Counted from the stretch's first letter, positions 8,353 to 56,639 are shown. The stretch: DNA of 64,000 bases from Candidatus Bathyarchaeia archaeon (GCA_035319765.1 DATHCB010000148.1:1076-65075); one strand, 5' to 3'. Program-made: numbers and translations. The notes: generated from the letters alone by a model not told the origin.

Positions 8353-8547
8353 TTAAAACTTGGGCTTTCTCACATTAAGCGTGGACTTGCTGTTTGGAAG
8401 CTTTCTTGATTAGAGACAGCCATTCCCTCTCGCTTGATCCAGCATCTATTTTGGCTTTCTGTGCTGGCGTTTCTCCGTTCAATGCCATGTGAGGTCTCAA
8501 AAAGCTGTAGTAGACTGGCTATAGCGGCCTTTCCTCAATGGGGATCA

Positions 8548-8599
8548 TCTTTGTTTGTCTTTGTCTGTCTGTTGTGTGTGTTTGTTGTTTGTTTTTGTC
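8548..8599. repeat. A-free T/G-rich low-complexity tract (52 nt) left of 16-mer copy a
   Basis: No A between 8548 and 8599; TTTGT/TGTG-type simple sequence. Confidence 0.7.
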
Positions 8600-8644
8600 A
8601 CACGTTATTTTTGTCTTGCGTTTGTTTAATATATTACTCGCATT

Positions 8645-8666
8645 GGGTTGGGATAAAACTTTACCC
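8645..8666 (+). repeat. 16-mer family copy a: GGGTTGG-GATAAAACTTTACCC (core 8651-8666)
   Basis: Read directly. Lies 218 nt upstream of the CDS 8884 start. Confidence 0.8.
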
Positions 8667-8685
8667 TTTTTCTTCTTCTAACTAC

Positions 8686-8765
8686 GATTCTCTCTACTAC
8701 TCTCTCACTCTCTCTCTACACACATACAAACAAACAAAAACAAACAAACAAAAATAAACAAACAA
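8686..8765. repeat. G-free C/T/A low-complexity tract (80 nt): CTCT.., ACAC.., (CAAA)n
   Basis: No G between 8686 and 8765. Homologous to the reverse complement of 14250-14317. Confidence 0.7.
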
Positions 8766-8826
8766 GAATAAACAATCAACTAATTAAACAGAATAACGAA
8801 AAAACAGAAATGCGTACAGACAGAAC

Positions 8827-8847
8827 GTTTCAAAATCCTTATTTGCC
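8827..8847 (+). promoter_or_regulatory. Candidate promoter box GTTTCAAAATCCTTATTTGCC, shared with the paralog at 17461-17480
   Basis: The near-identical 20-21-mer lies about 40-60 nt upstream of both beta-helix paralog start codons. A/T-rich, TATA-like. Confidence 0.4.
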
Positions 8848-8883
8848 AATGAAGCCTCAACTATACAGCAGGAGAAGCGAGAG

Positions 8884-10656
8884 TTGAGGAGGATTGCTTC
8901 GAGCCTAATCGTAGCGTTGTTGGTTTTGAGTTTATCCATACTTGCTTTTAATGTTAAGCCAGCCAGAGCACAATCAGGAGGAGCAATCATCATCAATCCT
9001 GACGGAAGCATAAGCAGCCCTGTAACTGCAAATATCACCACTTCCGATGAGATCACGTACACTTTCACGGGCAACAACTATCTGCCCATAGTCGTGGAGA
9101 GGAGTAACATAATCATAAACGGAAATGGCAACACACTCCAAGCCTCCGGAGGATTCGGGTTCTCTCTAACGGACATGAGCAGCGTAACAATAAAAAACAC
9201 TACCATAACAAAAAGCTATTATGGCATTTTTCTAAACTCTTCCTCTAGCAACACTTTGTCCGATAACAACGCCACGGCAAATGGCATTGGCTTTTACCTC
9301 TTCGCTTCATCTAACGATAATACTTTGTCCGGAAACAACGTCAGGGCCAATAGCGTATATGGCATTTATCTTGACAATTCTTCTAGCAACGTTTTGTCTG
9401 ACAACAATATCACGGCGAACCGCCTTTTTGGCATTGACCTTTATTCTTCTTCTGACAACACTTTGTCTGGCAACGTGATGGCAAATAATACTTACAACCT
9501 TGCCGTCTATGGCTTCGTTTTGAGCGATTTCGTGAATTCTATCGATGTTTCAAACCTTGTGAATGGCAAGCCCGTCTATTACTTGATAGGTCAGTCGAAC
9601 GTCCTGATAAGCCCCCAAACCTGTCCCAAGGGCGCTGGATATCTGGGTCTAGTCAACTGCAAGAATATGACGGTGCAAGGACTGACACTCGACAAAAACT
9701 TTCCTGGGCTTCTGATAGCAAATACTAACGACTCAAGAATCGCTGACAACAACGTCACGGCAAGCAGCAATTATGGCATGCTACTTTGCTATTCATCTGG
9801 CGATGTCGCGTCTGGCAACGACATAATAGCAAACGATGCGTACGGCATTTTTGCCTCCTGTCTTAACAACAGTACCCTCTCCGGTAACAACGCCACGGCA
9901 GACTATGGCGGCGGCATTGCGCTCGACTCTTCATCTGGCGATGTCGTGTCTGGCAACAGCTTCACAGCAAACAACGGCGGTGGCGTTGTCCTCTTCTCCT
10001 CTTCAGGCAATAGCATCTTTCATAATGACTTCTGGAATAACGTACCACAAGCGCAAGCGAGTTCGAACTCTAGCAATGCTTGGGATGACGGTTATCCTAG
10101 TGGCGGTAATTACTGGAGCAATTATCAGACAAGGTATCCTAGTGCTATCGCGAATGACAGTTCGGCAATATGGAACACGCCTTATGATGTCGCTAGTAAT
10201 AACATTGACAGATATCCGCTTATGGCGCCGTTCGACAGCTTCAACGTGACTTGGAACAATCAGACATACCCTATCGAAACTGTCAGCAACTCCACGCTTA
10301 GCAACTTCAACTTCAGCGCAACCGCCAAAACACTCACCTTCAACGTGACAGGCACGAGTGGGACAGTGGGCTTCTGCAGAGTTGCTATACCCTTGTCGCT
10401 CATGTCGGGAGAATGGACTGTTACAGTGAACGGTACGCCAATCTCCTATAGCACACTATACGATTCGAACTACACGTACGTCTACTTCAAGTACATGCAG
10501 AGCACGAAAACAGTCCAGATCCAAAGCACAAACGCAGTCCCAGAATTTCAACCCTTCATGCTGCTGCCTTTGTTTATGATAGTAACGCTACTTGGAGCCA
10601 TAGCCTTCAAGAAGCGTGCCAAAAAACTAAATGCTTACGAGTCTAGGCGTCCATGA
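8884..10656 (+). CDS. Secreted NosD-like right-handed parallel beta-helix repeat surface protein with PEF-CTERM-type C-terminal anchor
   Basis: Signal peptide ...ILAFNVKPARAQS. Many SGNN(I/V)T.N repeats. C-terminal fibronectin-like part. The C-terminus AVPEFQPFMLLPLFMIVTLLGAIAFKKRAKK has PEF (10540-10548), a TM helix and a basic cluster. TTG start aligned with MLRRIASS of the paralog. Confidence 0.85.
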   Translation: MRRIASSLIVALLVLSLSILAFNVKPARAQSGGAIIINPDGSISSPVTANITTSDEITYTFTGNNYLPIVVERSNIIINGNGNTLQASGGFGFSLTDMSSVTIKNTTITKSYYGIFLNSSSSNTLSDNNATANGIGFYLFASSNDNTLSGNNVRANSVYGIYLDNSSSNVLSDNNITANRLFGIDLYSSSDNTLSGNVMANNTYNLAVYGFVLSDFVNSIDVSNLVNGKPVYYLIGQSNVLISPQTCPKGAGYLGLVNCKNMTVQGLTLDKNFPGLLIANTNDSRIADNNVTASSNYGMLLCYSSGDVASGNDIIANDAYGIFASCLNNSTLSGNNATADYGGGIALDSSSGDVVSGNSFTANNGGGVVLFSSSGNSIFHNDFWNNVPQAQASSNSSNAWDDGYPSGGNYWSNYQTRYPSAIANDSSAIWNTPYDVASNNIDRYPLMAPFDSFNVTWNNQTYPIETVSNSTLSNFNFSATAKTLTFNVTGTSGTVGFCRVAIPLSLMSGEWTVTVNGTPISYSTLYDSNYTYVYFKYMQSTKTVQIQSTNAVPEFQPFMLLPLFMIVTLLGAIAFKKRAKKLNAYESRRP

Positions 10657-10851
10657 CTGTTTCTCGTTCCTCAAATACTGAGCTAACAAATAGGCCTCTT
10701 CATTAATCAAGGTGTCAAGAGTCTGCTTACTGCCATAACGCATTCTAGGAATCTTAACAACACTTTCAAAGAGACTGTTCAACCTCTCAGCCAAATCGTT
10801 AGTCTCATACTCAACTAAATGAACCCTCTTAAACATCCTCAGCTTCATCAA
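10627..10851 (-). CDS. Small hypothetical protein (74 aa)
   Basis: Non-repetitive helical-looking sequence. Its 3' end overlaps the end of the convergent gene 8884-10656 by 30 nt. No family recognised. Confidence 0.35.
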   Translation of the reverse strand: MMKLRMFKRVHLVEYETNDLAERLNSLFESVVKIPRMRYGSKQTLDTLINEEAYLLAQYLRNEKQSWTPRLVSI

Positions 10852-10990
10852 AAAATCAGTTACGAGAACAAAATCGTTCAGCGTTCAATCAGAAGATCAT
10901 CAATCACATGGCGATACAATTCTAGAGCAGCGCGCGTCAAGAATCGGAACGACGTTGTAAGCACGTATTTAGCGCGGGCAAAAGCGAATC

Positions 10991-11821
10991 TTAGTCTTTC
11001 TTTCTTTTCTTAGTAATAATTCCTTTCAGCAGTATTGCAGCAGCCAGTAGCGAAGTCATGCTCAGCCAAGGTGCTAGAAGGCTGAACATGGGTGTTGGTG
11101 CTGCGGCTCCGCCGACTGAAGGCGTTGGTAGCGAATATGTAATTTCCAAGTATGGTTCAGCGGACCATTCGGCTCCATCGCTTAAAGGGCTTGTCTCGTT
11201 CAAGTAATCGTGGACATATTCTCTGAGGCATATTTCGGTTATTCCACCTTTACTAATGTCGCCGATTCCTTGAGAGTTGAAAGCCATCGTATAGTTTTCA
11301 CGCAGGTCGCCTCTTATTTCTACTACTCCGTAAGGATTTCCTGAAAAACTGTTCCAGTCACTTGTGGTTAACGGCGTTGCTTGCGTTCCTCTCTGTGCGG
11401 ATACGTTTACATCGCCAGAATATGGTGCAGCGTACAGATTAAGCGTGACTGAACTCATTATTGCATTCTGCGGTATTGAAGAGGTATTAAAGTATTCAAA
11501 GACTCTACTAATGGTATAAGTAAAGCCTGTGAATGAAAATGATTCAGAAACCAGATTTTTGTCTCCAATCTGCAAATTAGATCCGTTACGGCATTTGACC
11601 CAAGATGTGATGGGATTACCCGAGCTCGCGTTTGAAATTAATCCTTCTTCAGACCGTGTTGAATACACATGGACAGTTATTGGACTTGCTAGCGCTTTCG
11701 GAATGGAGAATTGGAATAGCCCAATAAGGAGGAAGGTCACAAGAAAGACTGCGGCAATCTTTATTTTGCTCGTTCTCGAACGCGCGCGAAGTACTGTTGC
11801 CTCAAGCATTGAGGTTTTCAT
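10991..11821 (-). CDS. Secreted protein of unknown function with an LAPWL...LLKGIITKK C-terminal anchor cassette
   Basis: N-terminal TM/signal IKIAAVFLVTFLLIGLFQFSIPKALA. C-terminus SLLAPWLSMTSLLAAAILLKGIITKKRKKD is shared with CDS 15539-17110. Confidence 0.75.
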   Translation of the reverse strand: MKTSMLEATVLRARSRTSKIKIAAVFLVTFLLIGLFQFSIPKALASPITVHVYSTRSEEGLISNASSGNPITSWVKCRNGSNLQIGDKNLVSESFSFTGFTYTISRVFEYFNTSSIPQNAIMSSVTLNLYAAPYSGDVNVSAQRGTQATPLTTSDWNSFSGNPYGVVEIRGDLRENYTMAFNSQGIGDISKGGITEICLREYVHDYLNETSPLSDGAEWSAEPYLEITYSLPTPSVGGAAAPTPMFSLLAPWLSMTSLLAAAILLKGIITKKRKKD

Positions 11822-11973
11822 TATTACTTTATTCCTAAATTAGCCTGTCTACGGCAGGCACTCTCAATGAAACGCTCGTTTATAATGAGGTTATTAGGCT
11901 TTGTTACCCCCTCTTCTCCATATCCTGATTTCATTCGGTTCTATCATAGGTTCTCATAGCGTGGGCTTTTTTT

Positions 11974-12004
11974 GGGTTTGGGTTTGGGGGGTAAAGTTTT
12001 ATCC
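11974..12004 (-). repeat. 16-mer family copy b (reverse-complement core GGGTAAAGTTTTATCC at 11989-12004, preceded by GGGTTTGGGTTTGGG)
   Basis: Read directly. Lies 168 nt upstream of the minus-strand start at 11821. On the gene strand it reads GGATAAAACTTTACCCCCCAAACCCAAACCC. Confidence 0.8.
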
Positions 12005-12011
12005 AACAAAA

Positions 12012-12063
12012 ACAACGGACGACCACAACGGACGACCACAACGGACGACCACACAGGACGACG
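12012..12063. repeat. Tandem 13-nt repeat ACAACGGACGACC x3 perfect plus one degenerate unit, within a T-free tract (12003-12065)
   Basis: Units at 12012-12024, 12025-12037 and 12038-12050, with a degenerate unit at 12051-12063. No T from 12003 to 12065. Confidence 0.8.
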
Positions 12064-12231
12064 ACTAACCACGACTACGACCACCGACCACGACGACGGA
12101 CGATCACGACGGACGGATGGTGTAAAAATAGTCGTAACTTCAATCTACGGTATACTCGATCGAATACACATCTGGATGCTACTGGAACAGAGTGAAGGCA
12201 GGATAGCTAGTAGTACAAGAGAGTCAAAAGT

Positions 12232-12249
12232 GGACAAAAACTTACCCCC
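12232..12249 (+). repeat. 16-mer family copy c, degenerate (GGACAAAAACTTACCCCC)
   Basis: Read directly, in an intergenic region. Confidence 0.5.
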
Positions 12250-12281
12250 TTATAGCAGCGCGCTATCGTGGCACATGCTAA

Positions 12282-12647
12282 TCATGCTACTTGGCCGTAC
12301 TTTTCCTTGCATTTGAGAAAATCTTTTGCCATATCAAAAGGCCTTGTTAACATGCTTATCTTAATGTGTTCCTTCCTTCCATTTTCCCACAAGACAGTTT
12401 TATGCATCCAGACGCCCACAGGGAGTGGGAAGGTATAATGAATGTTCTTTATGCTCTTTAACTTGTATTCGGGGGTGAAAACGAGCTGATTCTTGTTTCG
12501 GACCATCTTCCATTTGATGCCAGGGGTGTATTTCATATTCCCGCGCGAAGATAGAATGAACCAATTTCTTGTAGTCAACGGGACACGCGCGCTAAATACT
12601 GAGCCAACGATCAAGCACTTGCTCCAAGACCGAAAACAGTAGTACAA
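12282..12647 (-). CDS. Hypothetical protein; probable true start at ATG 12536 (MKYTPGIKW...)
   Basis: The ORF-track N-terminus overlaps CDS 12592-12789. The shorter version removes the overlap. No family recognised. Confidence 0.35.
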   Translation of the reverse strand: MYYCFRSWSKCLIVGSVFSARVPLTTRNWFILSSRGNMKYTPGIKWKMVRNKNQLVFTPEYKLKSIKNIHYTFPLPVGVWMHKTVLWENGRKEHIKISMLTRPFDMAKDFLKCKEKYGQVA

Positions 12648-12789
12648 AAGCGACTATTACAACACAGAGAACGAAAAGAACGGCTAACGGTAGTGACACG
12701 ATGGCAAAAATAGCGTACCCTGCATATCCTACGAGAAGCAGGATCAACAAGGCTATGATTACAACAAGTATCTTACGAATATCGGTCAT
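12592..12789 (-). CDS. Small two-helix membrane protein (65 aa)
   Basis: Strongly hydrophobic. The ATGA start/stop overlap with the upstream gene (12786-12789) suggests translational coupling. Confidence 0.45.
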   Translation of the reverse strand: MTDIRKILVVIIALLILLLVGYAGYAIFAIVSLPLAVLFVLCVVIVAFVLLFSVLEQVLDRWLSI

Positions 12790-13466
12790 TTTACGTCACA
12801 TCCACAATTCTCGGAATCCATAACTGCTTCGCGCGCGCTGTGCAGAAGTGACAATTGAGGATTTTGTGTGCCTGCTGAATGTTGTGTAACTTCCTTTCTT
12901 GCTCTCTGAAATGAGAAGAGCGCACGCGTCTTCAGTGGTGAAGTTCTGATTAGCAGAACGCCTGTGCCTATCCCGAAGGTTCCCTTAGCGTCCCACATCC
13001 CAAACGCCACGAAGTCCCAGATCGTGAGTGCCCTCGCCCCCGGCATAATGCTTTGATCAATTGCATGCCTCAGGAGCGCCGTAGCAACAAGACACGTAAA
13101 CGCTCCCCATAGAATGACAAGGAGGCTTAGAGAGATTACTTCTGCTCTAGAGGGTTGTGCCTCTCGTCTCTGATGCCCATAGACGTACATGGTTATGCCA
13201 ATTATCAAGAGAGCCATTATAGAAACGTTCAGCCCATAGAACATCGTATAGAACAGACTATAATTTAGCACGGGCGGTGATGCGATGGCTAAGAAGAAAG
13301 AAATGCCGAAAAACCAGAAGGTAGAGAACACGGATACTAATGGCGCGAACAAAATCAGAACGTAGCCAACATGAATATATCGAATGATCCCTGCCTCAAG
13401 TTCTGCTTTTCTCTCGTCAGGCTTAAGCCTTTCTAACTCAATATTTGCGAAACGAAAAACAGTCAT
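12786..13466 (-). CDS. Multi-pass membrane protein, function unknown
   Basis: Four to five hydrophobic helices. Divergent from the Lrp-type regulator gene. Confidence 0.6.
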   Translation of the reverse strand: MTVFRFANIELERLKPDERKAELEAGIIRYIHVGYVLILFAPLVSVFSTFWFFGISFFLAIASPPVLNYSLFYTMFYGLNVSIMALLIIGITMYVYGHQRREAQPSRAEVISLSLLVILWGAFTCLVATALLRHAIDQSIMPGARALTIWDFVAFGMWDAKGTFGIGTGVLLIRTSPLKTRALFSFQRARKEVTQHSAGTQNPQLSLLHSAREAVMDSENCGCDVK

Positions 13467-13600
13467 GGACGCCTAGACTCGTAGCTGTTTAGCTTAAGAT
13501 TTGGCGGTCGAGCCACTTCTCATGTTTTTCAGGATCTCTATTATGCCGTTAACCCTGCTGTGACGCAAGAACATATAAGAATGAATTGTAAGAAAACGAA

Positions 13601-14173
13601 TTGTGGTTGATTAGCGAATTGAGTGAAAACGAGAAGGCTCAAATCAGAGATATCGAACTCAAAGTGCTCGCCGAGTTGATGAGGGATAGTCATAAGAGCG
13701 ACAGAGAACTCGCCAAAATAATAGGCGTTTCTCAGCCTACCGTAACGAGAGTTAGAACCAAGCTGGAAAGGGAAGGAATAATCAAAGAGTACACTCTCAT
13801 TCCTGATTTCAGGAAACTTGGCTATCAACTAATGGCTTTCCTGTTTATGGGAAAGCCAGAAACCACGGAAAACGAGAAGAGCGAAGAACTGAGGAAAGCA
13901 GTGGCCGAAATGGAAGATAGGACTCCTATTGCGACACTGACAGTTGCGGATGGGGAAGGCCTAGGGAAAGGAAGAGTGGTCGTCATCCTGCTTAAAGACT
14001 ATTCAAGCTACCTAGAAAAACTTGACATGGTAAGAAACCTTCCTAACGTTGAAGCCGAAAACATGGAAGGTTTCTTGGTTGATCTGTGTAATGAACGCAA
14101 CTTCCGCATTCTTTCGATGAAACAACTAGCTCACCATATCGAAGCCTTTCGGAAACCCGCAGAGAAAGACTAG
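13601..14173 (+). CDS. HTH-type transcriptional regulator (Lrp/AsnC-like N-terminal winged helix)
   Basis: DRELAKIIGVSQPTVTRVRTKLEREGIIKEYTLIPDFRKLGY is the typical Lrp/AsnC HTH plus linker. TTG start uncertain. Confidence 0.7.
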   Translation: MWLISELSENEKAQIRDIELKVLAELMRDSHKSDRELAKIIGVSQPTVTRVRTKLEREGIIKEYTLIPDFRKLGYQLMAFLFMGKPETTENEKSEELRKAVAEMEDRTPIATLTVADGEGLGKGRVVVILLKDYSSYLEKLDMVRNLPNVEAENMEGFLVDLCNERNFRILSMKQLAHHIEAFRKPAEKD

Positions 14174-14317
14174 ACCTTTCTCACTTCTTTTCTCTGTCTT
14201 CTACTTCCTAATATTCTATTCAAGAAAATGAATAAGGCACACTTGTTTGTATTTTTTTGTTTGTATGTGTGTAGAGAGAGAGGGTGAGAGAGTAAGAAGC
14301 AGTTAGAAGAAGAAAAA

Positions 14318-14333
14318 GGATAAAACTTTACCC
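14318..14333 (+). repeat. 16-mer family copy d (GGATAAAACTTTACCC), flanked by AGAAGAAGAAAAA / TTTTTCTTATTC
   Basis: Read directly. Lies between convergent genes. The left flank 14250-14317 is the reverse complement of the right flank of copy a. Confidence 0.8.
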
Positions 14334-14383
14334 TTTTTCTTATTCATTAGCGCTTCTTCTCTAGTTGGGTAATTCAACGCGCG

Positions 14384-15223
14384 CTAGGCTTTCTCGAATT
14401 CTATTATGTAAAAGGGCCATGATGTGTTAACGATGGCAGAGTATACAATGTCCCATGATACCCTCAGGTTTCTCACGTTTGTTGGTAACAAGGCGGTAGG
14501 CGGTCCACTCTTATTTAGAGCGTTGGTTTTGATCAGGAATTTTCCAAAAAAGGTTTTTTGTTTTTCTGATGAGAGTCCTTCGTCAACTATTGCTATCTTG
14601 GAGTCGTATTTTGCGACGCGCACTATTTCATCGAGAGCTTTGCTTTTGTCTCCAAAGGTGTTAATGCCGCCTACGTGTATCACCGCATCGAAGGAGTTTT
14701 CTTTATATGGGAGGTATGAAGCAGTTGCTCTTTGCAGCTCAACATTTTTCCACTTCTTCCTCTCTGTTTTCATTTTTGCATAAGCCAGCATCCCGTTGGA
14801 AATATCCATCGCGAGGAGTTTTCCTTGCGAACCAATTTGGCTCTTGATGAAAGAAAGGTTTCTTCCCGTCCCTGTTGAGATGTCCAGAACACTTGCACCC
14901 CTCCTTATTCGCAATCGCTTCACCCATGAGTACCTTTCAAATGGCTCAAGTCCAACGCTGAACAAGGGCTCAAGGTAACTCATGATAATATCATAACTTA
15001 ATGCCATTCTGTCGTACGTGAACATCCATTTTCTATCCTGCTCATTCAACATTTTAGGCAAAAGAAAATCCGGAATTCCATTCTTGATTTTATATATTTG
15101 ACCGCACGATTCACACTCAAGTAATCCAGACGAAACTACATCGTCAGAATCATCATGAGTTTCTAACTCCAAATCACCATGGCACATTGGGCAGCAAAGA
15201 AATCGAAGTACATCTTTCCTCAT
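14384..15223 (-). CDS. Class I SAM-dependent methyltransferase with N-terminal Trm112-like zinc ribbon
   Basis: CCPMCHG...CESCGQIYKIKNGIPDF zinc ribbon. SAM motif I VLDISTGTGRN. Confidence 0.85.
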   Translation of the reverse strand: MRKDVLRFLCCPMCHGDLELETHDDSDDVVSSGLLECESCGQIYKIKNGIPDFLLPKMLNEQDRKWMFTYDRMALSYDIIMSYLEPLFSVGLEPFERYSWVKRLRIRRGASVLDISTGTGRNLSFIKSQIGSQGKLLAMDISNGMLAYAKMKTERKKWKNVELQRATASYLPYKENSFDAVIHVGGINTFGDKSKALDEIVRVAKYDSKIAIVDEGLSSEKQKTFFGKFLIKTNALNKSGPPTALLPTNVRNLRVSWDIVYSAIVNTSWPFYIIEFEKA

Positions 15224-15329
15224 GGCTCTCTAATTTTCTCCCCAGTAGTATATTTTTCTTAAAGACAAAAATCATCGCATCGAAAATGAAAGCAATCACT
15301 AACATTCACAACATTAGCAATCCGATTTT

Positions 15330-15368
15330 GGGTTGGGTTTGGGATAAAACTTTACCCCCAACCCAACC
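15330..15368 (+). repeat. 16-mer family copy e with full hairpin arms: GGGTTGGGTTTGGG-ATAAAACTTTA-CCCCCAACCCAACC
   Basis: Core at 15342-15357. About a 12-bp stem with one bulge. Lies 182 nt upstream of the CDS 15539 start and 119 nt upstream of the divergent start at 15223. Confidence 0.85.
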
Positions 15369-15376
15369 ACGTATAC

Positions 15377-15393
15377 GAGAGAGACAGAGAGAG
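15377..15393. repeat. Perfect polypurine mirror repeat GAGAGAGACAGAGAGAG
   Basis: Mirror-symmetric about C15385. Immediately follows copy e. Confidence 0.7.
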
Positions 15394-15538
15394 GGCGCAT
15401 AAGCGTATACGCTAGATAAAACCGTAGCATTCACGAGCACAGCATTACAATTATGCAAACACCTTATTGTGCGCATAGAACTTTGTTCCAAAAGCGTTAT
15501 TTCTCAGTAGCCTGAGGATACTCACTGAGGGAGAATAG

Positions 15539-17110
15539 TTGAATTCGAAGTTTTCTTCGTTGTTAGTTCTATCACTGCTGGTTAGCATGTGCACGGTGTG
15601 TTTTAACTTTCGGCCAGCGAAGGCTGGCACAAGCTCTCAATCAGGACTCGTACAAGCTGCGAATACCGATTGGTGGTCCATGTTCCACCACGACCCAGCG
15701 CACTCTGGATACTCAACCTCAAGAGCTACATACACAAACCAAACCTTATGGACCTACATGACTGGTGGTGGTGTGTATACTTCTCCCGCCGTTGCATATG
15801 GAACGGTCTTCGTAGGTTCATACGATGGCAACATTTATGCTTTGAATGCTTCTACAGGCGCCTTCATGTGGCGCTACACGACTGATGGCGGTCCCGCTGA
15901 TCCCGCCGTCTCCGATGGCGTAGTGTTCGTCGGTTCGGGTGAGGGTTATGTTTACGCTTTGAACGCTTCCACTGGAAGCCTCATATGGATATTCGCAACT
16001 AGCGGTGCTGGTGGTGTCAACGTTGTTCTAACTGCACCTACCGTTACTGGCGGTCTGGTCTATCTTGGCTCAATGAACGGTTACCTATACGCTTTGAACG
16101 CTTCCACTGGCACGTTAGTTTGGAGCTACGAATATGGAGAAACGGGAAACTGGGAGGGATCGTCTCCGGCTGTTGAGGGTGGAGTGGTTTACGTCGGTTC
16201 AAACGATTATTACGTCTATGCTCTAAACGCTTCCACGGGGGAACTCGTGTGGCGCTCGGGAAAGTTTCCTTTCGGCTTAACCATGTCTTCTTCTCCTGCC
16301 GTTGTTGGTGGCATGGTCTATGTGAACATGGGCAGCGATTACAATTATTTTTATGCATTGAACGCTTCGACCGGTGCAGTCGTGTGGTGGTACGTGACGC
16401 ACGGTGCATACAGTGCTCCATTGCTTTCTTCTCCAGCCGTTGTTAACGGCGTGGTTTACGTGGGCTCAGATGATTATCACGTTTACGCTCTGAACGCTTC
16501 TACGGGCGCATTCCTGTGGACTTTCGCGACTGGTGGTATTGTGGAGTCTTCTCCTGCCGTTGCTGGTGGCATTGTTTATGTGGGGTCATGGGATGGTAGG
16601 GTTTACGCCTTGGATGCTTTGACTGGCGCATTGCTTTGGAGCTACAAGACTGGCGGTATTGAGTCTTCTCCCGCAGTTGTCAATGGCGTCGTTTACGTGG
16701 GCTCAGACGACGACGAGGTTTATGCTTTTAGCTCGCAAACTTATTCTGTGTCTTTCTCCGAGTCAGGTCTCCCTAGTGGAACTGTCTGGTCTGTAACTTT
16801 TAACGGGATGACATCCAGAGGCAGCCATAGCATCGTAACCTTCTCTGGAGTAAAGAATGGCAGTTACTCATACACAGTTGGCAGCGTTCCAGACTACACG
16901 GCTTCTTCATCGACGGGATCAGTGACAGTAAACGGCGCAAACGCAAGCGTACTTGTAACATTCACAAAAGCAGCACCAGTCGGTGGAGTCTCGGTATCAG
17001 TGACTACGTTAAGCTTCTTAGCACCTTGGCTAACCATAATCACGCTACTAGCTACTTCAGTTCTACTAAAAGGGATTATTACGAAGAAAAATAGAAGGGC
17101 AGGATTCTAA
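15539..17110 (+). CDS. Secreted PQQ-like (BamB-type) beta-propeller repeat protein with C-terminal Ig-like domain and LAPWL...LLKGIITKK anchor cassette
   Basis: Eight repeats of the V(Y/F)VGS.DG.(V/I)YALNASTG...W type. Signal peptide ...FNFRPAKA. C-terminus SFLAPWLTIITLLATSVLLKGIITKKNRR, with LAPWL at 17018-17032. Confidence 0.85.
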   Translation: MNSKFSSLLVLSLLVSMCTVCFNFRPAKAGTSSQSGLVQAANTDWWSMFHHDPAHSGYSTSRATYTNQTLWTYMTGGGVYTSPAVAYGTVFVGSYDGNIYALNASTGAFMWRYTTDGGPADPAVSDGVVFVGSGEGYVYALNASTGSLIWIFATSGAGGVNVVLTAPTVTGGLVYLGSMNGYLYALNASTGTLVWSYEYGETGNWEGSSPAVEGGVVYVGSNDYYVYALNASTGELVWRSGKFPFGLTMSSSPAVVGGMVYVNMGSDYNYFYALNASTGAVVWWYVTHGAYSAPLLSSPAVVNGVVYVGSDDYHVYALNASTGAFLWTFATGGIVESSPAVAGGIVYVGSWDGRVYALDALTGALLWSYKTGGIESSPAVVNGVVYVGSDDDEVYAFSSQTYSVSFSESGLPSGTVWSVTFNGMTSRGSHSIVTFSGVKNGSYSYTVGSVPDYTASSSTGSVTVNGANASVLVTFTKAAPVGGVSVSVTTLSFLAPWLTIITLLATSVLLKGIITKKNRRAGF

Positions 17111-17141
17111 AAGCACGCGGTTTTTACAGAGCATTCTACTT

Positions 17142-17171
17142 GGGTTTGGGTTTGGGACAAAACTTTACCCC
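17142..17171 (+). repeat. 16-mer family copy f (GGGTTTGGGTTTGGG-ACAAAACTTTACCCC), followed by a G-free tract 17157-17198
   Basis: Read directly. Lies 32 nt after the stop of CDS 15539-17110 and 336 nt upstream of the CDS 17507 start. Confidence 0.75.
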
Positions 17172-17460
17172 AATCAACCACCAACCAATCAACCAATTGA
17201 CAACTGACTACTGATTCTGGCATTCAGGAAAAGGCATATTGAAGAGCAGGAAACATGGTTCAGAACGCACAGTGCTTCTGATGTTGATAGCTCAAGGGGC
17301 ATAGTAGTAAAAATCAAGACCATAATAGGGTGCGGTATAGGGGTAATCGGAATCGAGGTTACGGTCATTCTGTAAAGAAGGGGCTTAAACCCTTAAGGAA
17401 GATTGACTCCGTCGATCTACACGTGTTATCTCTTCTCTGATAGAATCGGCGTAGAACCTT

Positions 17461-17480
17461 GTTTCAAAAATCTTATTTCC
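17461..17480 (+). promoter_or_regulatory. Candidate promoter box GTTTCAAAAATCTTATTTCC (paralog of 8827-8847)
   Basis: Conserved with the region upstream of CDS 8884. Lies about 30-45 nt before the start codon. Confidence 0.4.
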
Positions 17481-17506
17481 AGCCAAGTGTTGATTAAATT
17501 AGGGAC

Positions 17507-20500
17507 ATGGGAATGTTGAGGAGAATTGCTTCAAGCGTTATTATTGCTTTATTGTTTTTGAGTTTGTGTGCGTTCGCTTTTGATGTTCGAAGTGCAAAGG
17601 CGCAGTCTGGAACCATTTACATCAACCCAGATGGAAGCATAACCCCCTCTACAGCAAATATCACTACTCATAACGATGTCACGTACGCTTTCACGGGCAA
17701 CAACTACCTTCCTATAATCGTGAACAGAAGCAACATAATCATAGACGGCAGAGGTCACACACTCCAGGCCTCGGGAGAAACTGGACTTCTTCTGACTCAC
17801 ATGAGTAACGTTACTATAAAGAACATCACGATAACCGACAGCTCTTATGCCATTGATCTCTACTATTCTTCCGGCAATACTTTGTCAGACAATACCATAA
17901 CAGCAAATAGCGGGGTAGGGATTTACCTCGTCCAATCTTCAAACAATACCTTGTCTGCCAACGACGTCACAAGGAACGGTCTATCTGGCATTTTCCTCTT
18001 ATCTTCTTCTGATAATGTGTTATCGGGCAACAATATAACCGCAAACAGCGAAGATGGTATCCAGCTTGTCTCCTTGTCTGACAACAATATCTTGTACCAT
18101 AACGATATCGAAGCAAACACCAACTGGGGCATCGCCCTTAGCAATTCTTCTAGCAACGTTTTGTCCGACAACAACATTGGAGAAAACCTGTTGGATGGCA
18201 TTTTCATTCACTCTTCTTCTAACTGCATGATCGATGGCAACAATGTAACGGCAAACGCCTTCGATGGTATTGATCTGGAGCCCTCTTCTAACTGCACGAT
18301 CTCTGGCAACAACATAACAAGCAACAGCTATTACGGCGTTTATCTCGACTCCTCTTCTGGCAATACTTTGTCTGGCAATAACATTACAGCAAACGGCTGG
18401 GGTATTGATCTCGAATCTTCTGATGGCAACACTTTTTCTGGCAACAATGTCGCAGGAAACAGCTATGGTATTTTTCTCGACTATTCTTCTGGCAACACTT
18501 TTTCTGGCAACAACATCACACGAAACACAGGCTATTATGGCCTTTTTCTCTGGTCTTCTTCTGGTAATGTTTTGTCTGGCAACAACGTAGTAAACAACAC
18601 GGGGGGTGATGGTATTTTTCTCGACTATTCTTCTGGCAATGTTCTGTCTGGCAACGTGATGGCAGGTAACTTTGCGAACTTTGGTGTCTATGGTGTTGCT
18701 TTGAGCGATTTTGTGAATTATGTTGATGCTTCAAACCTCGTGGATGGCAAGCCCGTCTGCTACCTTGTGAATCAGTCGAACACGATGATAAGCCCCCAGA
18801 CTTACCCCGAGGGCGTTGGCTACGTGGGCCTAGTCAACTGCAAAAACGTGACAGTGCAAGGCTTGACGCTCACAAAAAATGGTCAGGGGCTCCTGCTGGC
18901 AAACGCGACCGATTCAAAAATCACCGGTAACGACGTCACTGCAAACGGCGGTGATGGTGTCGACCTCTGGTATTCTTCTGGTAACGTTTTATCCGGCAAC
19001 GACATAACAAACAACGGCGAAGAGGGTGTCTATCTCAATTCTTCGTCCAATTGCAGTGTCTCTGGAAACAACATAACCAACAACGATGATTGCGGCATCT
19101 CCATCGATTCTTCCAATTATAACACTATTTCGAGAAACAACGTAACAGCAAACAGCGATGATGGTATAGATCTCTTTTCTTTTGACAACAATAACACTTT
19201 GTCCAGTAACGATGTCACGGCAAACAGCATTCATGGCATTTTGCTTTCCTATTCTTCGGGTAACGTTTTGTCTGGCAACGTGATGGCAAATAACACGTAC
19301 AACTTTGGGGTCATTGTCGGCATTGGCTGTGTTTTGAGCGATTTTGTGAATTATGTTGATGCTTCGAACCTCGTGAATGGCAAGCCCATTTGCTACCTGA
19401 TTAATCAGTCTAATGTCGTGATAGGCCCACAGACCTATCCCAAGAGCGTTGGATACCTTGGCCTCGTCAACTGCAATAACGTCACAGTGCAAGGCTTAAC
19501 CCTCACAAGAAATGGCCAAGGAGTCCTGTTAGCAAACACAACCGATTCAAAAATCACCGACAACAATCTTAATGCAAACAGCAATGATGGTGTTGACCTC
19601 TGGCATTCTTCTGGTAACGTTTTATCCGACAACAACATGACAAACAACGGCGCATACGGCGTCTATCTCCAGTCTTCCTCTAATTGCAGTGTCTCTGAAA
19701 ACAACATAACCAACAACTTTTATTGCGGCGTCTCTATCGATTCTTCCAATTATACTACCGTTTCGGGAAACAACGTAACAAATAGCAGTGATTGTATCAC
19801 TCTCGCTTCTTCTGACAACAATACCCTGTCGGGCAACAACGTCACGGCAAACAGCGGTTTTGGTATTACTTTCTTTTTTTCCGACAACAATACGCTGTCG
19901 GGCAACAACATCATGGCAAGCAGCTGGTATGGCATCTATTTCGACGCTTCTTCTGGTAATGTTTTGTCCGGCAACAACGCAACAGCGAACGGCATTGGTG
20001 TTTGCTTCTACCTTTCTGACAATAATACTCTATCTGATAACAACGTAGCAAACAACGAGCAGGGCGTTTATCTCGGCGCTTCTTCTGACAACACGTTTTT
20101 CCATAACAACTTCATAAACAACACTCAGCATGTGCAGAGCGACGGCTCACCGAACACTTGGGACAACGGCTATCCTTCCGGCGGAAACTACTGGAGCGAC
20201 TATCAAACGGCGTATCCTAGCGCTGCGGAGAATGACAGCTCGGGCATCTGGAACATGCCGTACAACGTTAGCAGCGGCAACGTCGACAGGTATCCGCTTA
20301 TGGCGCCTTTCAAGAGCTTCAACGTCGCATGGAACAATCAAGCATACTCTGTCGACACTGACAGCAACTCCACGCTGAGCAACTTCATCTTCAACGCAAC
20401 CACTAAAACACTTAGCTTCGACGCGACGGGCACGAGAGGCACCGTAGGCTTGTGCAGAGTCGCTATACCCTTGTCGCTCATGTCAGGATTATGGGCTGTT

Positions 20501-20740
20501 ACCGTGAACGGAACGTCAATCTCCTATAGCACGATCACAGTTTCGAACTACACCTACATCTACTTCACGTATCATCAAAGCACAGAAATGGTCAAGATAA
20601 CGAGCACAAGCGCAGTCCCAGAATTCCAGCCCTATATGCTGCTGCCCCTGTTCATGATAATAACATTGCTCGGCGCCATGATCTTCAAGAGGAAGCAAAA
20701 CGTGAAAAAGCTCACTATCGCGCGTGGGCAAAATCCTTGA
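17507..20740 (+). CDS. Large secreted NosD-like parallel beta-helix surface protein (1077 aa) with an internally duplicated 208-aa module and PEF-CTERM-type anchor
   Basis: Paralog of CDS 8884-10656 at the N-terminus, C-terminal domain and anchor (AVPEFQPYMLLPLFMIITLLGAMIFKRKQ; PEF at 20618-20626). The module starting GNVMA..N...FGV is present twice, starting near 18650 and 19274. Confidence 0.9.
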   Translation: MGMLRRIASSVIIALLFLSLCAFAFDVRSAKAQSGTIYINPDGSITPSTANITTHNDVTYAFTGNNYLPIIVNRSNIIIDGRGHTLQASGETGLLLTHMSNVTIKNITITDSSYAIDLYYSSGNTLSDNTITANSGVGIYLVQSSNNTLSANDVTRNGLSGIFLLSSSDNVLSGNNITANSEDGIQLVSLSDNNILYHNDIEANTNWGIALSNSSSNVLSDNNIGENLLDGIFIHSSSNCMIDGNNVTANAFDGIDLEPSSNCTISGNNITSNSYYGVYLDSSSGNTLSGNNITANGWGIDLESSDGNTFSGNNVAGNSYGIFLDYSSGNTFSGNNITRNTGYYGLFLWSSSGNVLSGNNVVNNTGGDGIFLDYSSGNVLSGNVMAGNFANFGVYGVALSDFVNYVDASNLVDGKPVCYLVNQSNTMISPQTYPEGVGYVGLVNCKNVTVQGLTLTKNGQGLLLANATDSKITGNDVTANGGDGVDLWYSSGNVLSGNDITNNGEEGVYLNSSSNCSVSGNNITNNDDCGISIDSSNYNTISRNNVTANSDDGIDLFSFDNNNTLSSNDVTANSIHGILLSYSSGNVLSGNVMANNTYNFGVIVGIGCVLSDFVNYVDASNLVNGKPICYLINQSNVVIGPQTYPKSVGYLGLVNCNNVTVQGLTLTRNGQGVLLANTTDSKITDNNLNANSNDGVDLWHSSGNVLSDNNMTNNGAYGVYLQSSSNCSVSENNITNNFYCGVSIDSSNYTTVSGNNVTNSSDCITLASSDNNTLSGNNVTANSGFGITFFFSDNNTLSGNNIMASSWYGIYFDASSGNVLSGNNATANGIGVCFYLSDNNTLSDNNVANNEQGVYLGASSDNTFFHNNFINNTQHVQSDGSPNTWDNGYPSGGNYWSDYQTAYPSAAENDSSGIWNMPYNVSSGNVDRYPLMAPFKSFNVAWNNQAYSVDTDSNSTLSNFIFNATTKTLSFDATGTRGTVGLCRVAIPLSLMSGLWAVTVNGTSISYSTITVSNYTYIYFTYHQSTEMVKITSTSAVPEFQPYMLLPLFMIITLLGAMIFKRKQNVKKLTIARGQNP

Positions 20741-20891
20741 ACCCGTAAAAGCATAAATCTTAACTCTAACGACACCGCACTTCTCCAAGGGGCCACGAAA
20801 CTGCCGAGAAGAGATGTTGTGAAGTACATATCGTTCTCATTGCTAGCACAAAATGAGTACGCGACGCTCCTTACACATGTTGATTGCCTAC

Positions 20892-20928
20892 GGTTGGGTT
20901 GGGATAAAACTTTACCCCCAACCTAACC
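20892..20928 (+). repeat. 16-mer family copy g with hairpin arms: GGTTGGGTTGGG-ATAAAACTTTA-CCCCCAACCTAACC
   Basis: Core at 20902-20917. 12-bp stem including one G-T pair. Lies 102 nt upstream of the CDS 21019 start. Confidence 0.85.
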
Positions 20929-21018
20929 TTTCATCTGAATTCTGTATTCATAATCTATTTTGCGGACATCAACTTCTGAAGTAATTAGAATGGGACTGGC
21001 GAACGCAGAGGAAATGAC

Positions 21019-21925: not shown

Positions 21926-22984
21926 TTAGTTTCCTCGTTCTATTAGGAGCCTCTCGAGTTTTGATCGGACTTCTTCCTTGTTCTTCGTTGCGAAGTACCA
22001 TTTGATCGTTTTCTCGAAGCCTTCTTTGTAGTCGATTTTTGGTCTCCATCCTAGGAGCTTTTCAGATTTCTCCAAGCTGGCTGCTCTGGAGGCCGCTCCT
22101 TGTGGCTTGTCGAGATCGTGCAATATAGTCTTGGGTCTCCATCCCACTACCTTGAATATCAGTTCAGCGGCTTGGTCTATGGTGATCCTGTCGTCCCTGC
22201 CGGCGTTGATTGGAGTGCCGTCCTCTATTTTCTCTGAGGCCAGTATGAGCGCGTCCACTATGTCTTGGACATAGGTGAAGTTTCTGTCTTGTTTGCCCGT
22301 TCCCCAGATGACGAACGGATCAGCCCTGATGAACGCCCTCGCGATCAGCGATATGATCGCATGCGTCTCGTTTTCCCTAGGACCATAAGCCGTGAATATT
22401 CTTACCGCCGACGTCTTCACGCTGTGCTCCCTGTGGTACGCTTTCAAGGCGGTCTCTCCCATCAGTTTAGCCCAGCCGTACTCTAGATCGGCAAGGGCTT
22501 TGTCCCTGACGAACGCGTCAGCATCCTCCTCTCGCAACAGGTAAGAAGATCCGACTTCATCCTGCAAAAAAGTCGGATACACACAAGCAGAACTGGCGAA
22601 GCAAATTCTTTCTACCCCAGCCCTGAACGCCTCCTCGAACACCAGCTGATCCAGAATCATATTCGTGCAGCACTCAGCCGGATGAAGATCAATGTACCCT
22701 CTTCCTCCGTGCAAGGCGGCCAAATGAAAAACAGTGTCAACATCCTTCATCACAGAACACGCGAAGCATTTGTCCTTGAGGTCGCCTTGCCGAACCTTCA
22801 GGTTGTCCGCTGTCCAAGTAGTCGAATCCGCTTGCTTCAATGAATACTCGAGATTAGCGAGCCTTCCACTTGAAAAATCATCAGCAACCGTCACGACAGC
22901 CCCATTCTTCAGCAACGTATCAATTAGGTGACTCCCTATGAAAGATGCCCCACCTGTAACGAGGATTTTAGCGCTAGACATCAA
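21926..22984 (-). CDS. NAD-dependent sugar-nucleotide epimerase/dehydratase (extended SDR)
   Basis: ILVTGGASFIGSHL Rossmann motif and catalytic YGWAK (YxxxK). Confidence 0.85.
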   Translation of the reverse strand: MMSSAKILVTGGASFIGSHLIDTLLKNGAVVTVADDFSSGRLANLEYSLKQADSTTWTADNLKVRQGDLKDKCFACSVMKDVDTVFHLAALHGGRGYIDLHPAECCTNMILDQLVFEEAFRAGVERICFASSACVYPTFLQDEVGSSYLLREEDADAFVRDKALADLEYGWAKLMGETALKAYHREHSVKTSAVRIFTAYGPRENETHAIISLIARAFIRADPFVIWGTGKQDRNFTYVQDIVDALILASEKIEDGTPINAGRDDRITIDQAAELIFKVVGWRPKTILHDLDKPQGAASRAASLEKSEKLLGWRPKIDYKEGFEKTIKWYFATKNKEEVRSKLERLLIERGN

Positions 22985-23251
22985 GTCTCAGGATTGAACT
23001 ATCTAGTGTCGTTTTAATATGTCTGCTGGATGTTTGTTATAGAAGATTAATGAGCTTGCTTCGACCCGTTTTCGCCTAGAAGCCTATGAGCTTTTTGAGC
23101 AGTGCACGCGGTTACTGAAAACTCAGTCTGGCGCGCGTGAGACCCAACTGCCGATAAAACCTGTACCGCTTATGACTAACGACCTTTTTTTGCCGCGTAA
23201 ACGTGCCGCTATAGAAGATTCTCTCTTTCTTTAATATTTTCAAGAATTAGG

Positions 23252-23455
23252 TCATATATCGTTTGCTGGTCTATCCTGAAAACGTTGGTGCGACAGCGAA
23301 AGAGCGCTCCAGTATCTTTCAAGATTGCCTATGTCTAGACGTTTGTGGTCCTTTCTCAACTTGACAGCGTACACCCTCAAACCCCAATCGACAAGCATTT
23401 GGATGGCGTCGGTAAGCTGGATCTCCCCGCTCCTTCCTGGTTGAGTCTGCTCCAA
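23252..23455 (-). pseudogene. C-terminal remnant of a sugar-1-phosphate nucleotidyltransferase (GalU/RmlA-like)
   Basis: GEIQLTDAIQMLVD..L.VYAV.L....R.DIGN...Y matches only the last roughly 60 aa of this family. No upstream coding continuation, and only a TTG start. Confidence 0.5.
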
Positions 23456-23555
23456 GCGCGCGCTTAATGAGGCGGAGTGGGAAATAGAACAATAAGTTTA
23501 TGCACGCTAAAAACTAGTGAGATTGAGGTGATGAATTACGGAGACTAAGACTATT

Positions 23556-24542: not shown

Positions 24543-24576
24543 CCTACATACTTGCGCGTTAGAATTTTGGGCGGGC

Positions 24577-24793
24577 ATGAGCGCCAAGTTTAGAGACCTG
24601 AGCAAAGTCAATGAGGATCAGCATAACCGAGTCATCTTCAAGAAGAAGGAGAGTTTTGAGAGATTTCTGGGAAGGACCTGAACCTTTTGCTTAGCAAGAA
24701 CTTTTGAGAAAGATTAGGAAAGGGGTTATTCTTGACTTCGGCTGTGGCAGAGGAATTGGCATAAGGCGTTTTAGCGCGCTACCTACCTTGTAG
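24577..24793 (+). pseudogene. Disrupted remnant of a class I SAM-dependent methyltransferase
   Basis: ATG 24577 gives 34 aa then TGA at 24679. A second frame (24695-24793) encodes ..KGVILDFGCGRGIGIRRF (SAM motif I) and runs into the 3' end of the convergent gene. Confidence 0.4.
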
Positions 24794-26917: not shown

Positions 26918-26918
26918 C

Positions 26919-27119
26919 TTATACTCTTACTCCCAAGAAGTAGATACCTGCGGCAAGCGCGCGCTTTGGGAGTGTGAGACGCCTGTCACTTCCACCGACA
27001 CGTAGTATCCTTGCCTTCAAACCAACTTTTGATAATAACTCTAAAGATGTTGGCTTGAATCTATGGAAACTCCCATAATGAGCTTCGATTTTTATTCCTT
27101 TTATCATTCGCCTGTTCAT
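26919..27119 (-). CDS. Small hypothetical ORF (66 aa) wedged between the GT4 and GT-C genes
   Basis: ATGA overlap with the GT4 stop (27116-27119), and its stop is 1 nt from the GT-C start. This may instead be a gene remnant. Confidence 0.35.
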   Translation of the reverse strand: MNRRMIKGIKIEAHYGSFHRFKPTSLELLSKVGLKARILRVGGSDRRLTLPKRALAAGIYFLGVRV

Positions 27120-28357: not shown

Positions 28358-28545
28358 TGTCTAGCACCATATGAAACAAGCATATTCCTATGTGATCGCT
28401 TGTATAAAATCATGACCGCAACAGTATTTCTTCGGCTTGCAACTGGCGAGCACTATTCATCAATGCAGTTTATTGGCAGATGAGGCTGCCATAATGGCCA
28501 ATACGGCAACGCATAATCCAGAAGCGCGCGCACACTTTGGATTTA

Positions 28546-56489: not shown

Positions 56490-56597
56490 AAGAAAAAATC
56501 AGTTCTGAGTTCACATTTATGCTTTTCTCAGGGATTGAGTTTGTTCCTTCGGGCTAATTTTGCCACACCTGTGGCATGCATTACCTGAGAGTGTGGT

Positions 56598-56639
56598 GGA
56601 TAAAACTTTGCCCTCTCTCTGCACCAAAACCTTTTTCGG
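56598..56639 (+). repeat. 16-mer family copy h (GGATAAAACTTTGCCC, 56598-56613) fused to a third copy of the CTCTGCAC.AAACCTTTT block (56617-56639)
   Basis: Read directly. Lies in a divergent intergenic region, 83 nt upstream of the CDS 56696 start. Confidence 0.7.

Follow-up and report, generated by a model that had tools for sequence, protein, structure and literature searches.

A 16-nucleotide core repeat at the borders of small gene modules in Bathyarchaeia and their viruses: a putative site of gene exchange

The question raised by this locus, a 64,000-nucleotide stretch of a Candidatus Bathyarchaeia archaeon (GCA_035319765.1 DATHCB010000148.1:1076-65075; hereafter the window), is what purpose is served by a near-palindromic 16-mer, GGATAAAACTTTACCC, which recurs between its genes, mostly in the interval 8,645 to 20,928. 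A first-pass annotation, made from the sequence alone, had regarded it as an undescribed non-coding repeat family oriented towards surface-protein genes, and had offered three roles for it: an operator, a structured leader or small RNA, or the core of a decayed miniature inverted-repeat transposable element (MITE). As argued below, the 16-mer looks like a recombination or boundary site, and not like a means of switching surface-protein genes on and off. The description that fits it best is a module-boundary repeat, a site of gene exchange for Bathyarchaeia and their viruses; nothing of this sort, an interspersed recombination/boundary repeat, has been described for this archaeal class.

The window contains seven intergenic copies of GGATAAAACTTTACCC, five of them exact and two with one mismatch (Table 1), and the 16-mer is palindromic at 12 of its 16 positions. 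When up to three mismatches are allowed, 12 matches are found for 0.55 expected, a number reached by none of 100 shuffles; the family seen at first pass is real, and it lies where it had been placed. The other descriptive claims held as well. All seven good copies lie outside credible open reading frames (ORFs); the distances of 218, 168, 182, 336, 102 and 83 nt to the downstream starts are all correct; tracts of the GGGTT(T)GGG type form the 5' arm at 8651, 15342, 17155 and 20902, and lie on the other side at 11989; and the complementary arms at 15342 and 20902 are real, both units being hairpin-capable (the region 15325-15375 folds with −20.9 kcal/mol on the + strand and −24.6 kcal/mol on the − strand). 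The supposedly degenerate copy at 12232 exists as a match, and its membership in the family is doubtful, as it has three mismatches and neither G/T nor C/A arms. Four minus-strand matches (18979, 19258, 19612 and 19954) were rejected as members; they lie inside the beta-helix ORF 17507-20740 and are part of its 66-69-nt coding repeat.

How far does the repeat extend beyond the window? A scan for the exact 16-mer, using one genome per prokaryotic species, listed at least 117 stretches, at least 71 of which come from at least 32 metagenome-assembled genomes (MAGs) of Bathyarchaeota/Bathyarchaeia, often with two to five copies per 8 kb; among the matches listed, 46 are single ones in unrelated taxa. 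The copy-based statistics given in this text (anatomy, context, arms) cover the copies in the listed Bathyarchaeia loci. There, the 16-mer is the core of a ~40-base intergenic repeat, composed of a G/T-rich 5' arm of ~11 nt (ttggttggtt, gggtttggg or tgtgtgtg, for instance), the core, a C that directly follows it in 86% of the copies, and a C/A-rich 3' arm of ~11 nt (such as caaccaacc, ccaaaccc or cacacac). The logo displays no conservation past ±12 nt. A compositional purity of 80% or more in both arms is found in 63 of the 99 listed Bathyarchaeia copies, versus 1 of the 46 listed matches from other taxa. Some copies, a minority, deviate in having a purine (gaagaagaaaaa) or pyrimidine (tttttcttcttc) arm, and two of the seven window copies are such exceptions, 8651 for its pyrimidine 3' arm and 14318 for both arms.

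The repeat is limited to one Bathyarchaeia subclade and the head-tail viruses infecting it. Among the matches listed, the only armed copy outside Bathyarchaeia-labelled genomes (L073:88-103) lies on a 2.6-kb contig binned as Thermoplasmatales; this contig comes from the source study of several Bathyarchaeia MAGs and was probably mis-binned. The distribution is patchy: the motif occurs neither in L237/L238 nor in the 83 kb that surround methyltransferase homologues on four related contigs. Conserved synteny around the methyltransferase was considered and dropped, since the relatives L120-L124 and L237/L238 have neither the synteny nor the motif. Scanning the metagenome loci for another core with similar arms yielded only degenerate versions of the known one. 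A literature search found no paper with the 16-mer sequence, and nothing matching on Bathyarchaeia promoters or integrons. The earlier view of a genuine, undescribed, non-coding family was right.

Does the repeat point at genes, and at surface-protein genes in particular? According to crude but uniform ORF calls in 71 loci, 109 of 125 copies lie outside ORFs. The genes flanking 82 classifiable copies are convergent in 22 cases, divergent in 16 and tandem in 44, approximately as in random intergenic regions, and the tandem cases are split 22:22 by core orientation. Orientation is thus random over the 82 copies, and the rule proposed from the window comes down to three tandem cases; the convergent copy at 14318 had been omitted from the earlier orientation table, and three of the six copies listed there stand between divergent genes, where pointing is automatic. 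The association with surface proteins holds in the window, which has five secreted or anchored neighbours, and fails outside it. The 113 core-adjacent ORFs encode chiefly methyltransferases, GNAT acetyltransferases, ferredoxin-type, ArsR/MarR, glyoxalase, NUDIX and KaiC-like proteins, and a surface-protein signal was rejected because the core-adjacent genes in 50 loci are mostly those of cytosolic accessory enzymes and defence genes, with some housekeeping genes.

The cores form arrays, with a median spacing of 1.1 kb, which bracket modules of one or two genes and in which neighbouring cores have the same orientation by 39:23 (p = 0.056). The content of the modules (methyltransferases, GNATs, glyoxalase, NUDIX, type I restriction-modification, Shedu, TIR) is typical of exchangeable accessory DNA, and P-box promoters are found inside modules. 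Where a gene ends towards a core the gap is often just 6-60 nt, while a gene starting away from it usually leaves 57-120 nt.

What happens at the cores was seen by comparing genomes, in which insertion, replacement and re-contexting of modules were all encountered. Concerning insertion, L044 reads X-core-Y, and the contiguous L061+L033 read X-core-(2.27 kb)-core-Y, with cores in direct orientation and with complementary ends (ccaaacacacac/gtgtgtgtttgg) on the 2.27-kb insert. Concerning replacement, the viral contigs L139 and L146 have flanks that are 98% and 96% identical, and between their cores unrelated DNA of 325 bp versus 2.6 kb, the longer version comprising two modules and one extra core. 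As regards re-contexting, the window and L235 have the methyltransferase module in common (14334-15341 in the window), with 97.5% nucleotide and 96% amino-acid identity up to both cores, beyond which the DNA of the two genomes is unrelated. One-sided breaks also occur, the homology of L047/L055, L047/L083 and L072/L075 ending 9-23 nt beyond a core.

In alignments between different genomes that are at least 85% identical over at least 300 bp, 8 of the 21 internal alignment ends fall at a core, 6-31 nt from its centre in both genomes; for comparison, 2.4% of the sequence, and an estimated ~10% of the intergenic DNA, lies within 45 nt of a core centre. No alignment of 70% identity or more crosses a core with 40 nt on each side. 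Contig ends lie within 300 nt of cores in 14 of 100 cases versus 3.6 expected, a ~4-fold enrichment that fits population heterogeneity or assembly trouble at cores. As far as sequence comparison can demonstrate it, the core is a preferred junction for the insertion, replacement and re-contexting of small modules, on chromosomes and viruses alike, between sequences that are otherwise 88-98% identical. The window locus itself is present in two public assemblies at 99.87-100% identity, and a search for strain variants of its proteins gave only the known context. The sole indel between the window and L001 (99.87% identical) is one 13-nt unit fewer in L001, in the array beside the core at 11989; the arms of L139/L146 differ by one GGTT unit, and those of the window and L235 by single-base indels. 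Hence, the arms behave as unstable microsatellites, growing and shrinking beside the core.

Viruses carry the repeat as well. A scan of IMG/VR returned 30 matches, which we estimate to be about the chance level, and about seven contigs have genuine armed copies. Capsid proteins are encoded by L125 and L139, a portal and a terminase by L125 as well, and a tail-tube protein by L128. In L125 (8192-10681) a core lies between a Shedu-like gene (SduA_C) and a CAP12/Pycsar-type TIR-domain gene, beside the terminase; in L148 (2205-7285) cores adjoin type I restriction-modification genes; and in L128 a copy lies between the tail-tube gene and an immunoglobulin (Ig)-like gene. The core sites of L125 and L148 are accessory hot-spot regions of tailed viruses, and both contigs are predicted to belong to tailed viruses of Bathyarchaeia.

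Any explanation has to accommodate the repeat and its anatomy, clade specificity, independence of orientation, arrays and recent synteny breakpoints at the core, all of which the comparisons establish. We propose, tentatively and at somewhat less than an even chance, that the repeat is a module-boundary recombination site recognised in trans, and that the cores are the crossover sites. A trans-encoded DNA-binding or recombination protein would recognise the repeat, which would mark the borders of one- or two-gene modules, and these modules would be inserted, replaced or lost by crossover at the core. The working of the site would parallel that of the pdif sites flanking dif modules, or of attC between integron cassettes. 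The 16-mer is kept without a single change in at least 32 species, among which protein identity is often only 45-80%, and this implies a conserved recognition protein. Two inner half-sites flanking an asymmetric centre can be discerned in the near-palindrome (GGATA-AAACTT-TACCC), as is general for the core sites of tyrosine recombinases such as dif (11-6-11; PMC2958812). The asymmetry could make the site polar, which would fit the surplus of neighbours facing the same way. We infer that positions 3, 8, 9 and 14 would confer this polarity, and that a dedicated recombinase, rather than general recombination at the repeat, would be doing the exchange. In the window, the direct cores 8651 and 14318 enclose 5.65 kb, both ends of which are formed by a ~85-nt inverted repeat (Table 1). 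This is the layout expected if a segment with its own palindromic site recombined into a chromosomal core, and the corresponding empty site would read TACTCGCATTGGGTTG-core-TTTTTCTTATTC. The broader statement, that a Bathyarchaeia subclade and its tailed viruses share a hitherto unrecognised module-exchange system, functionally akin to integrons or dif modules, that has its own 16-bp polar core and a putative trans-acting recombinase, and that moves defence, surface and small-enzyme genes between chromosomes and viruses, is possible, and we regard it as rather doubtful in its entirety.

Several observations weigh against this proposal. Thirteen of the 21 recent breakpoints are not at cores. 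In 70 adjacent pairs, the arms that bound one module are no more complementary than random pairs, so that the rule 'every module has matching ends', true in individual cases, was rejected. The orthologous modules of L021 and L025 have cores opposite in orientation and at different distances from the gene, which is awkward for a strictly polar site. Cores also adjoin housekeeping genes (LeuRS, Rad50 and Lhr). Pfam scans of the ORFs of the window, of the 113 core-adjacent ORFs and of the viral contigs revealed no recombinase or transposase. A conserved length of just 16-17 bp is short for the site of a tyrosine recombinase. Lastly, the comparisons would look no different if general recombination or fork-stalling took place at a repeat that primarily serves some other function.

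The rival explanations differ in how they fare with the same material. For the first-pass annotation, the 16-mer could be a palindromic operator of the Lrp/AsnC-like regulator encoded at 13601-14173, governing a surface-protein regulon. Such a function would suit the near-palindromic core (12/16) and the five secreted or anchored neighbours in the window, and regulator homologues (40-48% identical) do occur in four motif-bearing loci, the core lying 110-145 nt after the regulator stop in three loci (the window, L040 and L066) and a degenerate core lying within 260 nt of the gene in about six regulator-selected loci. However, when metagenomes were searched with five aligned regulator homologues, the 80 loci retrieved (505 kb) held no exact copy and only eight with two mismatches or fewer. 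No copy occurs in the homologue loci closest to the window's (L155-L158, four loci of 74-94% identity), and in L155, whose orthologous regulator locus is 94% identical, the homology with the window ends 15 nt after the regulator stop codon. Copies also stand between convergent genes, in random orientation and at no fixed promoter distance, and the core-adjacent genes of the 50 loci encode mostly cytosolic enzymes, defence and housekeeping functions; we consider an operator very improbable. It is hardly credible that the element works as RNA, be it a structured 5' leader or an sRNA, in which the arms would pair into a stem and the 16-mer would form the loop. The complementary arms at 15342 and 20902, the stable hairpin of the folded 15342 unit and the small hairpin with G·U pairs of the reverse-strand core would speak for it, but the arms pair no better in cis than in trans (4.54 versus 4.53 of 12 positions, 118 copies) and do not covary (z = 0.06 in register; −0.6 for the best of five registers), while the folded copies 8651 (both strands) and 56598 (minus strand) form no arm stem. 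Furthermore, nothing is conserved downstream as an RNA body, orientation is random, and the Rfam 15 covariance models at gathering score and the tRNA scans gave no matches. In many copies the arms do not pair, and strong stems appeared on folding only where the arms chance to match. The pairing at 15342 and 20902 is a side effect of the arm composition rule, and both the operator and the RNA readings are largely excluded.

A bidirectional transcription-boundary element has better grounds and is a serious rival, and yet we hold it to be unlikely. It would act as a roadblock or terminator after genes and, before promoters, as an upstream or alternative element resembling the BRE/TATA signal (BRE, TFB-recognition element). 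It would be read by the host transcription machinery or by a DNA-binding protein, hence its use by host and virus, and the rearrangements would arise merely from repeated sequence at module edges. In our own alignment the reverse complement of the core, GGGTAAAGTTTTATCC, matches 11 of 16 positions of the BRE/TATA-like P box of the clade, GCGGAAAAGTTATAGCT, and in 13 instances a core, facing either way, precedes a P box by 16-42 nt; nevertheless, copies are equally frequent between convergent genes, which need no promoter there, and between divergent genes, which need no terminator, with no orientation bias. The proximity of cores to stop codons (6-60 nt), the 57-120 nt before starts that leave room for a promoter, and the opening of some 3' arms with T5 (e.g., ACCC-TTTTTCTTCTTC) speak for a boundary element; against it, the forward-strand core has no oligo-T run. 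Copies within viral structural and accessory regions are consistent with such a signal, but its absence around the same genes in the close relatives L120, L155 and L237, and from the 505 kb of regulator-homologue loci, makes it too patchy for a general transcription signal. A DNA-bound roadblock protein could stall replication forks, and thereby explain the breakpoints and the instability of the arms; that alignments never run through the core speaks against the boundary element. More improbable still is a selfish repeat, similar to repetitive extragenic palindromic (REP) sequences or MITEs, which would be copied into the gaps between genes by a transposase encoded elsewhere (for example, a HUH enzyme acting on the hairpin, like the REP-associated tyrosine transposases, RAYTs) and be a passive substrate of rearrangement. 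The repeat is indeed intergenic, clade-specific and patchy among relatives, around orthologous genes it changes both place and direction, some of its units are perfect palindromes of considerable length, and the reverse-strand core forms a 6-bp hairpin with G·U/G·T pairs (−3.3 kcal/mol, z = −4.1), the forward strand being unfolded. On the other hand, aligned DNA presents no clean ~40-bp presence/absence polymorphism, the complementarity of arms in cis is at chance, terminal inverted repeats and a target-site duplication are lacking, as is any conservation past the arms, and no transposase was found among the core-adjacent ORFs and the viral contigs. The decayed MITE of the first-pass annotation came closest in spirit, for its tie to genome rearrangement; it fails on the terminal inverted repeats, the target-site duplication and the body beyond ~40 bp, all lacking here. 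MITEs in general were rejected since conservation stops ±12 nt from the core, with no homogeneous body of 100-500 bp.

Promoter-like boxes distinct from the 16-mer occur nearby. The first-pass annotation was right to doubt that the 16-mer serves the beta-helix genes as core promoter: it does not, these genes having their own box (GAAC..TTGTTTCAAAA..CTTATTT) ~50 nt before the start. This box, which the annotation had already set apart as promoter-like and which is present at 8826-8850, 15470-15497 and 17440-17466, is common to the two beta-helix genes and to a gene encoding a pyrroloquinoline quinone (PQQ)-propeller protein. An archaeal BRE/TATA core promoter was rejected for the 16-mer, because of its random orientation, its copies between convergent genes and the separate boxes ~50 nt from the beta-helix/PQQ starts. 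An expectation-maximisation motif search in 37 upstream regions returned AGCGCGCGC as the top motif, the 16-mer being below background. This second intergenic motif (often T/A-AGCGCGCGC) has 15 exact matches in the window versus 0.54 expected, for instance at 5019, 7645, 23455, 26956, 28523, 41367, 53558, 55137, 56656 and 59826, mostly 45-110 nt before start codons, and it also adjoins 16-mer copies in the relatives L236 and L033. Another box, TTTTGCGGAAAAGTTATAGCTGAACC, absent from the window, is highly conserved in related Bathyarchaeia ~45-60 nt before the ATGs of many different genes (e.g., L017:3737-3753, L026:3670-3686 and L083:3370-3386), with the 16-mer often 16-42 nt upstream in either orientation; it looks like an unusually invariant BRE/TATA promoter.

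Table 1. Copies of the repeat in the window and features directly associated with them
Feature	Coordinates	Strand	Description
Repeat unit 1	8641..8678	+	G/T arm cattgggttg, exact core 8651-8666, pyrimidine arm tttttcttcttc; left border of the 5.65-kb segment
Left arm of ~85-nt inverted repeat	8667..8751		Just inside core 1; pairs with 14243-14317, pairs 78-92% complementary
Repeat unit 2	11971..12015	-	Exact core 11989-12004, (TTTGGG)3 tract 11971-11988, arm aacaaaaacaa 12005-12015
T-poor tandem array	12012..12117		13-nt unit ACAACGGACGACC, 7.8 copies; starts 8 nt from core 2
Doubtful degenerate copy	12232..12247	+	GGACAAAAACTTACCC; 3 mismatches, no arms; maybe a decayed copy or chance
Right arm of ~85-nt inverted repeat	14243..14317		Just inside core 3
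Repeat unit 3	14306..14345	+	Purine arm gaagaagaaaaa, exact core 14318-14333, pyrimidine arm tttttcttattc; between convergent gene ends
One-gene module	14334..15341	-	S-adenosylmethionine (SAM) methyltransferase 14384-15223; bracketed by cores 3 and 4
Repeat unit 4	15328..15369	+	Arm ttgggttgggtttg, exact core 15342-15357, arm ccaacccaacca; arms complementary
Repeat unit 5	17140..17197	+	(TTGGGT) tract, one-mismatch core GGACAAAACTTTACCC 17155-17170, (CCAATCAA) tract
Repeat unit 6	20890..20929	+	Arm acggttgggttg, exact core 20902-20917, arm ccaacctaacct
Solitary repeat unit 7	56587..56625	+	One-mismatch core GGATAAAACTTTGCCC 56598-56613; between the divergent genes 55965-56489(-) and 56696-57085(+)

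Regarding the surroundings of the copies, the core at 14318 lies between the convergent ends of 13601-14173(+) and 14384-15223(-). The proteins starting at 8884, 11821(-), 15539, 17507 and 21019 have hydrophobic N-terminal segments, and all but the one starting at 21019 have C-terminal anchors. The four surface proteins 8884-10656, 10991-11821(-), 15539-17110 and 17507-20740 combine an N-terminal signal or transmembrane segment with a C-terminal hydrophobic anchor and a basic tail (e.g., VPEFQPFMLLPLFMIVTLLGAIAFKKR), these anchors resembling a PEF-CTERM-type sorting signal; 10991-11821 and 15539-17110 are paralogous to each other in their C-terminal parts (inverted repeat 11005-11118/16977-17090). 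A 62-nt inverted repeat (10624-10685/13434-13495, 84% complementary), both arms of which are matched by L155, links the end of the beta-helix gene region with the start region of the membrane-protein gene 12786-13466(-), and suggests a duplicated gene-start fragment or a past inversion. Long strand-asymmetric low-complexity tracts accompany some cores (8540-8600, 8667-8800 and 12005-12117 in the window), among them an A-poor G/T/C tract, a G-poor tract of ~130 nt and a T-poor tandem array of ~110 nt; read outward from the core, these flanks are A/C-rich on both sides, and (ACG/GAC)n tracts such as cgacgacggacgacgaccacgacgg recur beside cores in many other species. Directly after the motif cluster comes a large glycosylation/cell-surface cluster (21926-37116) encoding several NAD-dependent epimerases, GT1/GT2/GT4 glycosyltransferases and a PMT_2-family transferase, and the motif array lies at the edge of what is likely a variable surface island. 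The window also encodes NrdD and an AF0577-type radical SAM enzyme, which marks its source as an anaerobic archaeon.

In peat, soils and sediments Bathyarchaeia are abundant, though most have not been cultured; they are archaea in which the exchange of accessory genes and the interplay with viruses are almost wholly obscure. If the repeat is a recombination site, it would be a new archaeal route for cassette traffic between host and virus and would supply a sequence tag for variable islands and virus-host links in metagenomes, besides helping to explain why MAGs fragment at such places. If it is a transcription boundary instead, it would be the first strongly defined boundary signal other than oligo-T in this class.

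How does the element compare with known systems? Tailed phage genomes possess conserved boundary or 'linker' sequences at mosaic joints. Similarly to these, the repeat is a short conserved sequence between exchangeable modules (here in L128, L125 and L148), and differs from them in that the sequence is shared with host chromosomes across many species and forms long arrays. With REP sequences and bacterial interspersed mosaic elements (BIMEs) it has in common intergenic units of ~35-40 bp with a palindromic component, in either orientation and often right after stop codons, such elements being known hot spots for rearrangement and protein binding. Unlike them, it has no conserved hairpin, its centre rather than a stem being conserved; no RAYT was seen in the pieces examined, and copies are common between divergent genes and in viruses. 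Integron attC sites are imperfect palindromes (R''-L''...L'-R') that fold as a single strand and carry GTTRRRY at the crossover. The clade-specific repeats that part ~1-kb single-gene cassettes in arrays, such as the Vibrio VCRs, are matched here in their arrangement, in the content of the cassettes (GNATs, methyltransferases, glyoxalase, defence and unknowns) and in the hypervariability of the arrays between strains. In contrast to integrons, our element displays neither an attC-type folded palindrome nor GTTRRRY in its logo, no integrase or attI was seen (in the 113 core-adjacent ORFs, the window and the viral contigs, the arrays being seen as 8-kb pieces), the genes face both ways with their own promoters, and copies also stand singly beside housekeeping genes. 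The element is not attC, REP or MITE as these are defined.

The functionally closest systems are the dif modules of Acinetobacter plasmids and chromosomes, where Xer (XerC/XerD; in archaea, XerA) carries out recombination at the pdif sites, integron cassette arrays being the next. The dif modules are small, have their own promoters, are flanked by short Xer sites and are shuffled among replicons by a recombinase encoded elsewhere (PMC13141974, PMC6449649, PMC12907356). The present repeat departs from this model in having 16-17 conserved bp instead of 28 (11-6-11), with compositional microsatellites as flanks. When examined as a 28-bp site of the dif type, its outer G/T- and C/A-rich arms around GGATA-AAACTT-TACCC are not conserved in sequence. 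Neighbouring sites share their orientation (39:23) instead of alternating, the host is an archaeon, and the element occurs on chromosomes and viruses. What it has in common with dif modules are short near-palindromic sites with an asymmetric centre between small accessory modules; modules that have their own promoters, lie in either orientation and recur in different contexts with their junctions at the sites; no module-linked recombinase gene; and heavy shuffling between close relatives.

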